Below, piece after piece: positions 4,806-21,880 of a DNA stretch of 64,000 bases. The first letter of the stretch is position 1. Every line of letters starts with the position of its first letter. Source of the stretch: Thermoprotei archaeon (lineage in GTDB: Archaea; Thermoproteota; Thermoprotei; Thermoproteales; B15-G16). Below the pieces are notes generated by a model, which was given only the letters and a program-made list of their open reading frames with translations, searched no databases and was not told where the DNA came from. The stretch lies in NCBI GenBank assembly GCA_003649205.1, contig QMRC01000002.1, positions 32,001 through 96,000 on the forward strand, given 5' to 3'. The translations under genes were made by a program, and so were the position numbers.

Positions 4806-5291
4806 CTACCTCTTAAGAAATTTCTTGATCTCCTCGAAAACTTCAATAGCATACACTTCTTTCGATGGAGCGGCTGAAGGTGGCTTGAAGATCACAGGTA
4901 TACCGAGAGTTTTAGCTCCTTCAGCTAACTTCCTATCACCAGTCACGAGAATAGCACCAAGTTCACGAGCATACTTCAAAACATCTAAGTCATCTTTAAC
5001 AGGAAGATACGTGACACCATCAGCACAGTACCTATCACTAATCCCAGAGCAAACCTCAAAAACCTCAAGCTTGAGACCATGGTCACGAGCAATCCTAACA
5101 AGCAACCCCCCTAACTTCCTCAAAGTCTCATCACACAAAACCCTAGCACACAAACCCCCAGAACTAGTACAGGAACAAGAGCTAACTAATCTCAACCTCC
5201 TAACAAAATCCTCAAGTTCACTCAAAGACTCAAAACACAGCAATAGATAAACCTTCAAAGCAAACCCCAGAAGAAACACAACAGACAACAC
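4806..5291 (-). CDS. PIN-like (Mut7-C/DUF5615-type) domain protein; true start probably later than the ORF start
   Basis: VLCDETL...DDLDVLKYARELGAILVTGDRKL motif. Confidence 0.6.
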   Translation of the reverse strand: MLSVVFLLGFALKVYLLLCFESLSELEDFVRRLRLVSSCSCTSSGGLCARVLCDETLRKLGGLLVRIARDHGLKLEVFEVCSGISDRYCADGVTYLPVKDDLDVLKYARELGAILVTGDRKLAEGAKTLGIPVIFKPPSAAPSKEVYAIEVFEEIKKFLKR

Positions 5292-5364
5292 ATATCAAAC
5301 AAACGGACAGTATAACGACAAATCACAGAAAGAGCGAAACAACACAAGTAATAGGAGAAGTAAA

Positions 5365-5474
5365 CCCCCGAGGAGTGAGGTAGGGTCCTAGATCTCCGTT
5401 CCCTCTATACCTAGGGTAACCCCCTAGGTATAGAGGTACTTGGAGACCTAGGGCTCTACCCCACTCCTCGGGGG
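5365..5474 (-). ncRNA. 110-nt rod-like hairpin (long inverted repeat) with a loop-E motif; unassigned ncRNA candidate
   Basis: Arms 5365-5416 and 5422-5474 are nearly fully complementary; minus-strand internal loop AAGUA/GAAC; BRE/TATA-like AAAAATCTTATAAG at about 5498-5511 on the minus strand. Confidence 0.6.
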
Positions 5475-5570
5475 CGTTTGAAATTATGTCTGTGTATCTT
5501 ATAAGATTTTTGGTGTTATGTTTTGAGGTATTATACTTGTGGAAATTACGCTACTTTACTTAGTTCACTT

Positions 5571-5625
5571 GATCAGTGCTTTGGCCCTTCTTCATCTTTC
5601 TGTGGCTACCATCTTCATCATCATA
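5571..5625 (-). ncRNA. C/D box guide sRNA
   Basis: ATGATGA-agatggtagcca-CAGA-aag-ATGAAGA-agggccaaagca-CTGA. Confidence 0.8.
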
Positions 5626-21773: not shown

Positions 21774-21880
21774 GCACGAGGGCGAGGGGGTAAGGGTCAG
21801 CCTCCGAGCCTAGGCCATCTCCCTTGCGGGGTCTCCCTGCTAGGCCGTCATCATCCCCCGAGGAGCCCCGCCTCGTGCTC
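21774..21880. ncRNA. GC-rich structured RNA candidate with C and D boxes on the minus strand
   Basis: Terminal stem GCACGAGG/CCTCGTGC; minus-strand ATGATGA (21848-21854) and CTGA (21797-21800); internal GCAA tetraloop; TATA-like elements on both sides. Confidence 0.55.

Follow-up and report, generated by a model that had tools for sequence, protein, structure and literature searches.

A candidate stand-alone hairpin RNA behind a conserved promoter element in one genus of uncultured Thermoproteales

Within the 64,000-nt stretch of archaeal DNA analyzed here in its entirety (the window), the minus strand at 5365..5474 folds into a 110-nt near-perfect hairpin of 46 bp, which lies directly behind a conserved BRE/TATA-like promoter element and is the top real hairpin of its 2.07-Mb genome. 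Our preferred interpretation, held tentatively and at somewhat less than an even chance, is that this locus encodes a stand-alone, promoter-driven, very stable hairpin sRNA in which the long duplex is the selected feature. Such a stand-alone RNA, or else a leader of the PIN-like gene that follows, is more likely than a decoy that mimics the ribosome, as an earlier note on this DNA had proposed. If transcribed, the hairpin would add one more lineage-specific structured small RNA to a barely studied uncultured family of Thermoproteales, and would be an unusually clean case, with the promoter, the helix and the trailer all readable from sequence.

The hairpin and its standing in the genome

RNA folding of the minus strand, read from 5474 to 5365, produced a single 46-pair rod with perfect stems of 13 bp at the base and 15 bp at the apex, the latter capped by the 5-nt loop GGUUA. 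The remainder of the rod contains G-U at pairs 14 and 28, two single mismatches (A.C and C.A, at positions 20 and 22) and the sole asymmetric internal loop, of size 5x4, in which 5'-AAGUA-3' (minus strand, 5437..5441) stands opposite 5'-GAAC-3' (5398..5401). All these elements of the rod, including its only asymmetric loop, had been described in the earlier note, and all are present in the MFE structure. The MFE of the minus-strand hairpin is -91.8 kcal/mol, compared with a mean of -46.4 +/- 4.1 kcal/mol for 200 dinucleotide-preserving shuffles (z -11.1), and 0/200 shuffles were as stable. The plus strand of the same segment is equally stable (-91.3 kcal/mol, z -10.9), and two G-U and two A-C occur on either strand, so that the fold does not tell the strands apart. 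In the MFE fold of 321 nt around the hairpin, the flanks contribute only weak, ensemble-unstable pairs, and a palindrome reaching into the flanks was rejected on these grounds.

The assembly that holds the window (G000) comprises 2,066,741 bp in 31 contigs, with 43.3% GC. The GC content of the hairpin is 59.1%, a value reached by only 0.27% of 110-nt segments of this genome, and that of its flanks is 35-38%. In a gapped palindrome scan of the whole assembly, the hairpin scored 32 and the next real hairpin 17. The only palindrome with a higher score is contig C3 (1-291428, outside the window), whose full 291,428 bp form one perfect palindrome with its center at 145714, within a tRNA-His gene; the contig is a fold-back artefact of assembly, in which ~146 kb of the genome are represented twice. 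The second-best hairpin, at ~42063 of contig C15 (locus L121), is an interrupted GC-rich stem-loop preceded by a TGATGA box; it has no Rfam match at E <= 0.001 and is another structured RNA candidate.

BLAST found one copy of the hairpin in G000. Neither direct repeats of the element nor a target-site duplication around it (flanks ...CAAACG and TTTACT...) were found, so that many copies with target-site duplications, the MITE-like picture that would have spoken against an RNA gene, were not seen. A replication-origin site was considered and rejected: the cumulative GC skew of the contig (C2) has its minimum at ~117 kb, the hairpin is at 37.4 kb, and no origin-type gene or GC-skew extreme was detected near it.

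Searches of the whole window with Rfam 15 at gathering thresholds returned tRNA-Gly only and nothing on the hairpin, which is accordingly unannotated, as had been surmised. Under permissive settings, the hairpin matched animal and plant miRNA-precursor models only, on either strand and far below threshold (at best mir-1684, with 28.2 bits versus a threshold of 60); such matches are what any long hairpin would attract. The scores of PyrR205 (15 bits) and HgcG (13 bits) were also sub-threshold, and an H/ACA guide sRNA was rejected, as the hairpin has no pocket, no K-turn or K-loop, no tandem G.A and no ACA after the helix, only the 5x4 loop and two 1x1 mismatches. Likewise rejected was a C/D-box sRNA, given that there are no C (RUGAUGA) or D (CUGA) boxes inside 5365-5474 and that the C/D-like matches are located at 5571-5625. 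No bulge-helix-bulge was found in the hairpin. The absence of C/D, ACA and tRNA features, which had been pointed out before, holds both in Rfam and in the sequence and fold.

Among 61 genomes of the order, a long BLAST match to the hairpin was present only in G000 and in G001, the only other species of the genus; none was present in the 59 genomes from other genera. In 45 other genomes, BLAST reported 15-29-nt matches with E values of at least 0.002, and the six loci inspected among the 19-29-nt matches of relatives were unrelated sequence and lacked a surrounding hairpin. When 62 genomes of the order were searched with a covariance model built from the hairpin, matches came from G000 and G001 and from none of the 60 others. 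With a 19-mer pattern, genome contigs yielded G001 and one chance match, and metagenome contigs five chance matches. Patterns of 15-16 nt led to 17 viral-contig loci, none with the hairpin according to the covariance model, and blastn of phage records gave no hairpin match. The homologue search, by BLAST, covariance model and pattern scans, thus left G001 as the sole homologue, and the element appears restricted, as far as visible in these sequences, to a single genus within an uncultured family of Thermoproteales. The accessible parts of the literature on Thermoproteales hairpin sRNAs, and of the Pyrobaculum sRNA paper, make no mention of such a hairpin. The hairpin belongs to no described family, yet it is of a familiar kind, a lineage-specific GC-rich structured RNA candidate of a thermophilic archaeon.

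Promoter, trailer and conservation

On the minus strand, the BRE/TATA-like element AAAAATCTTATAAG occupies 5511-5498 and is followed, after 22 nt, by G5475, which directly precedes the helix and forms a C|G step; the earlier note had placed this element about 23 nt before the first G, in agreement with our count. Transcription is predicted to start at ~G5475, that is, at the first base of the helix. The element at 5498..5511 is marked out by this spacing, by the identity of 52 consecutive positions around it in G001 and by its likeness to the tRNA-Gly promoter elsewhere in the window (GAAAAATCTATAAAC), a nearly identical string. The tRNA genes of G000 have an A-rich BRE/TATA that ends ~30-33 nt before the mature 5' end. 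On the plus strand, our own reading of the sequence revealed no TATA-like element at a matching distance.

The hairpin is followed by a trailer (minus strand, 5340..5364; UUUACUUCUCCUAUUAC...), a possible weak termination zone. As had been observed previously, it is pyrimidine-rich: 76% of its 25 nt are pyrimidines, compared with an average of 50% in random genome 25-mers, 2.7% of which reach 76%, and with 64 +/- 8% in the tRNA trailers of G000. The tRNA-trailer 4-mer log-odds score of the trailer is 3.5, that of tRNA trailers 17 on average and that of the plus-strand trailer -23.9. Termination is uncertain because the score of the trailer places it only in the top 10% (9.7%) of the background, well below tRNA trailers. 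T4+ runs are rare in tRNA trailers themselves (within 30 nt after 4/37 tRNA genes in G000); after the hairpin there is TTT only, with the first T4 129 nt downstream. An intrinsic terminator, consisting of a short GC hairpin and a T run, was rejected, the hairpin being 110 nt long and followed by TTT only.

According to the accessible part of PMC3150283, GC islands mark structural RNAs in AT-rich thermophiles. In G000, there are 114 islands with at least 58% GC, 37 of them with ARAGORN tRNAs; 20 of the 45 further islands outside long ORFs were scanned and contained five tRNAs and a 23S rRNA fragment (six in all), along with one C/D candidate. GC islands are good markers of RNA genes in this genome. 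The five tRNAs (loci L104, L108, L109, L116 and L117, on contigs C1, C2, C12 and C14) were found by Rfam and missed by ARAGORN, and four of these five islands span 93-118 nt, which suggests introns. Introns in tRNAs are common in Thermoproteales.

GC-rich structural RNA genes of AT-rich hyperthermophiles were reportedly described in 2002 by Klein, Misulovin and Eddy, whom PMC3150283 cites. As far as the accessible sources describe such genes, the hairpin resembles them in being a GC island (59% versus 43%) in an AT-rich intergenic region, with a BRE/TATA and tRNA-like flanks; it differs in that it falls into no described family and is a single unbranched hairpin. Together, the promoter, the trailer and the GC island appear to favor a minus-strand RNA, each of them indirectly.

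Comparison with G001 showed that the upstream synteny is kept, with the glycosyltransferase gene, a C/D sRNA candidate and the promoter in place. At third codon positions of the glycosyltransferase gene, the window and G001 are 76.4% identical. In the intergenic segment 5475-5733, the identity is 93.5% (244/261), and in the hairpin, the base is identical at 19/20 and the apex at 35/37 positions. The spacer behaves differently: in a G001-type contig of run X2, it no longer aligns at 80% likeness beyond 5283, a divergence of >20%. Because the promoter and the palindrome are strongly conserved while the downstream spacer has diverged, both are under constraint, and their conservation between the two species is above the level of synonymous sites. 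The poorly conserved part of the spacer between the hairpin and the start of the PIN-like gene, at 5259..5339, is U/G-rich and A-poor; over its full 106 nt (5259-5364, minus strand), the spacer contains 8% A and 55% U, and it diverges between species much faster than the promoter side.

From this evidence, we infer the transcription of the hairpin RNA, its 3' end and any role along the following lines. Directed by the conserved BRE/TATA at 5511-5498, RNA polymerase would initiate minus-strand transcription at ~G5475, and the transcript would begin directly with the 110-nt GC-rich hairpin. Most transcripts would probably end in the pyrimidine-rich trailer and yield a small double-stranded RNA that is stable and stands alone, while some would continue towards the PIN-like gene. 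Selection would act to maintain the long duplex with its sequence, and not the loop-E-like loop, a peculiarity of the species of the window. The role of the RNA, if any, would most likely be that of a protein-binding or nuclease-resistant dsRNA scaffold. Several observations weigh against a stand-alone RNA. Nothing shows selection for pairing on one strand, because both strands fold equally with the same G-U and A-C counts. In addition, strict selection at the RNA level would not predict the two A.C mismatches that the proposed RNA strand contains, and the element is present in two species only, with one of the copies cut at the apex.

The downstream gene and the sister allele

As stated in the earlier note, the hairpin lies directly upstream of a PIN-like gene on the same strand (4806..5258, minus strand, 150 aa, probable TTG start at 5258). 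The start is placed by the alignment of the N-terminus, in which the ORF matches its orthologues from genus g8 from the first residue (48, 49 and 46% identity). The product matched Pfam PIN_5 with E 5.8e-4 and 19.8 bits (cut-off 27) and the PIN chains of HARP (RNA-free RNase P) with E 8e-3. Its top two Foldseek matches are PIN domains (E 1.3e-3, TM 0.39-0.45), VIA-align gave generic Rossmann-like matches only (Z ~9), and these two structural searches did not separate a PIN from a generic Rossmann-like fold. Residues D43, E44, D89, D90 and D92 are invariant in 4/4 sequences; the CDE and KDDLD motifs are conserved, and the LVTGD motif is present in the three full-length sequences, the fourth being cut before it. 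We take these three motifs to fit PIN signatures. PIN membership is plausible, if sub-threshold. The family is rare: a word-indexed protein search recovered the query itself only, and among 1.84 billion proteins there were 28 representatives at E <= 1e-3 and five at E <= 1e-25.

In G038 and G046, the orthologous gene directly follows a PCNA gene, and in G034, it follows a wHTH-like gene. The PCNA upstream of the PIN-like orthologues (L056:1384-1854 and L058:1408-1728, in two of the three genomes of this other genus that have a close orthologue) has an acidic N-terminal extension. No hairpin was found upstream of the orthologues in these three g8 genomes; thus, the PIN-like protein is not generally tied to a hairpin RNA.

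The hairpin might instead be the 5'-terminal leader of the PIN-like mRNA, an unlikely alternative, albeit one to be taken seriously. In that case, the same promoter would drive a leader of ~217 nt, made up of the hairpin and the U-rich spacer, followed by the 150-aa ORF, and the 5' hairpin would either shield the mRNA from decay that depends on its 5' end or, as a partial roadblock or attenuator, hold expression of the nuclease down. The arrangement is suited to such a leader in that the hairpin and the gene share a strand, with 106 nt between the hairpin and the probable TTG start, the helix begins within ~1 nt of the predicted transcription start and the first 129 nt after the hairpin contain no T4+ run. 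Our own reading of the sequence, moreover, revealed a GGGG Shine-Dalgarno-like run 8-11 nt before the TTG but no convincing BRE/TATA in the interval from the hairpin to the ORF. However, the g8 orthologues without a hairpin show that the gene can do without one, conservation of the spacer is poor, and a 46-bp helix is far beyond what end protection would need. Long leaders are also unusual in Crenarchaeota.

The G001 contig breaks off within the hairpin, 17 nt beyond the apex, and the second arm is absent from the G001 bin and from the listed X2 pieces. Both types of allele are present in run X2, where the contigs are likewise interrupted within the palindrome. Parts of the locus lack cover in runs X2 and X3, and we draw no conclusion from these gaps. 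The G001 arm is identical at 50/52 positions to the reverse complement of the 3' arm of the window but only at 45/53 to the 5' arm. Over arm positions 20-38, it matches the same arm of the window at 11/18 positions, and this contiguous tract is the complement of the other arm. On the promoter side, the AAGUA of the window is accordingly replaced in G001 by GUUC, which exactly complements GAAC, and the G001 apex, GGGGG-UUA-CCCCC, is a more perfect palindrome than that of the window. Two histories fit this pattern: a near-perfect ancestral palindrome, with the loop and the mismatches gained in the lineage of the window, or the exchange or conversion of a tract between the arms.

The locus could be a DNA-level palindrome with no RNA role, either a protein-binding or recombination site or the tolerated relic of an inverted duplication whose arms are kept alike by exchange; we consider this rather improbable. 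Quasi-palindromes subject to template-switch or arm-to-arm conversion are known from bacterial genetics, and the hairpin is like them in its tract 20-38 and in the more perfect apex of G001, the better fit of the G001 arm to the opposite arm being a signature of arm conversion, template switching or inversion. The strand symmetry of fold energy and of the G-U and A-C counts, and the break of two G001-type assemblies, possibly from the same reads, at the same base inside the palindrome, point the same way. What sets the hairpin apart from such quasi-palindromes is its coupling to a conserved promoter, positioned for a transcription start exactly where the helix begins, and a conservation so far above the synonymous level that arm-to-arm conversion alone is insufficient to explain it. 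The GC enrichment is typical of structural RNA, known dimeric binding sites are all far shorter than the palindrome, and no GC-skew extreme or origin-type gene is nearby.

The loop-E-like motif and other RNA candidates

The loop AAGUA/GAAC is a literal fit to the bulged-G (loop E/sarcin-ricin) consensus, reading 5'-A-AGUA-C / 5'-G-GAA-C in the MFE structure: as in loop E, AGUA is opposite GAA in an asymmetric loop with Watson-Crick flanks, closed by a C-G pair and with an A.C adjacent. The resemblance to the motif of 5S and 23S rRNA, to which the earlier note had drawn attention, extends to the organism's own sarcin-ricin loop (SRL; AGUACGAGAGGAACGGGG), with which the hairpin shares the 12 letters AGUAC...GGAACGG, and to loop E of its 5S rRNA (G-AGUA-C...G-GAA-A), with which it has AGUAC...GGAA in common. 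In contrast to the rRNA motif, that of the hairpin is embedded in a long rod, with a 15-bp stem where the SRL has a GAGA tetraloop, and the sister species lacks it on the promoter strand; the likeness is one of letters only, and the S-turn is putative. The organism's SRL lies at the very start of a 23S rRNA 3' fragment (G000:C5:1-292, locus L112), as the contig begins exactly at this loop; a whole-genome search of G000 with the LSU model gave no match, and therefore the rRNA is nearly unassembled in this MAG.

The hairpin has consequently been read as an SRL/loop-E mimic that titrates an SRL-binding factor and, in the sharpest form of this idea, as an RNA antitoxin-like inhibitor of the PIN-like nuclease. 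We regard this as very unlikely. The accessible part of PMC5175351 reports that the PIN-domain proteins VapC20 and VapC26 cleave the SRL, and we count this as a precedent in kind. If the G001-like arm is ancestral, the change from GUUC to AAGUA would amount to about three clustered changes within 5 nt, a hint beyond drift. The order of promoter, structured RNA, weak terminator and nuclease gene on one strand resembles the layout of type III (ToxIN) toxin-antitoxin systems. However, the hairpin is single, with no tandem RNA repeats, and the neighbor is PIN-like, with a sub-threshold membership, rather than ToxN, AbiQ or CptN, and has orthologues without the RNA in housekeeping-like contexts. 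The GAGA tetraloop, the site cut by VapC20 and ribotoxins, is absent. Finally, because the promoter-strand arm of G001 reads GUUC, no AGUA/GAA motif is possible on that strand, although the opposite strand of the G001 hairpin, whose second arm is unassembled, may carry it. The AGUA/GAA loop is hence not kept on the promoter strand, which counts against a loop-E decoy by a criterion that the earlier note itself had set, an unconserved loop. The proposed decoy for SRL/loop-E binders is left unsupported by this difference and by the orthologues that occur with no hairpin. We found nothing pertinent in the literature on SRL mimics or decoys, or on type III or PIN RNA antitoxins, in archaea.

We would be surprised if the most elaborate variant proved right, namely, an SRL mimic that restrains the downstream PIN-like nuclease in an archaeal type III-like pair built on a PIN fold, with arm exchange switching the motif on and off the transcribed strand. 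If true, an SRL mimic controlling a PIN nuclease would be a new class of RNA antitoxin or decoy, and this is the only reading that would matter broadly. The comparison of the two alleles is also a caution: DNA-level arm exchange in a palindrome can make or erase a textbook RNA motif, and for this reason, a motif match in a single genome is weak functional evidence.

It is highly improbable that the hairpin is a solo foldback, MITE- or PATE-like mobile element or the remnant of a virus or plasmid. Its size, its whole-length inverted symmetry, typical of some MITEs, and its confinement to one genus would suit such an element, but it differs from MITEs and other palindrome-associated elements in being a single copy at the same syntenic site in both species, with no target-site duplication and with no relatives in 60 other genomes of the order, phage records or the 17 viral-contig loci. 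An assembly artefact in the form of a small fold-back chimera, which the perfect-palindrome contig C3 in the same assembly brings to mind, can be dismissed almost entirely, as the arms of the hairpin differ at four transitions and the asymmetric loop, unlike a fold-back copy, the flanks on either side are unique and syntenic, and the arm, the apex and the beginning of the second arm recur in both the sister MAG G001 and the second run X2.

Two further RNA candidates were noticed in the window. A GC-rich island at 21774-21880 (plus strand), with up to 70% GC, lies behind a TTTATAAA box and has a terminal stem; it has no Rfam match, and its fold is no better than that of shuffles (z -0.17). Its paralogue at G000:C6:48742-48837 (minus strand) is 80% identical and the sole one in the genome, with none in 60 relatives, and the two possibly represent an sRNA family outside Rfam. 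The 11-mer CCCCCGAGGAG, common to the hairpin and this island, was discarded as a link between them, being within chance for an 11-mer by our own estimate. The second candidate, separate from the hairpin, is a C/D-box sRNA at 5571..5625 (minus strand), sub-threshold in Rfam (sR14, E 0.003), which has its own TATA ~25 nt upstream, C, D', C' and D boxes and ~12-nt guides, and is identical to G001 at 53/55 positions.
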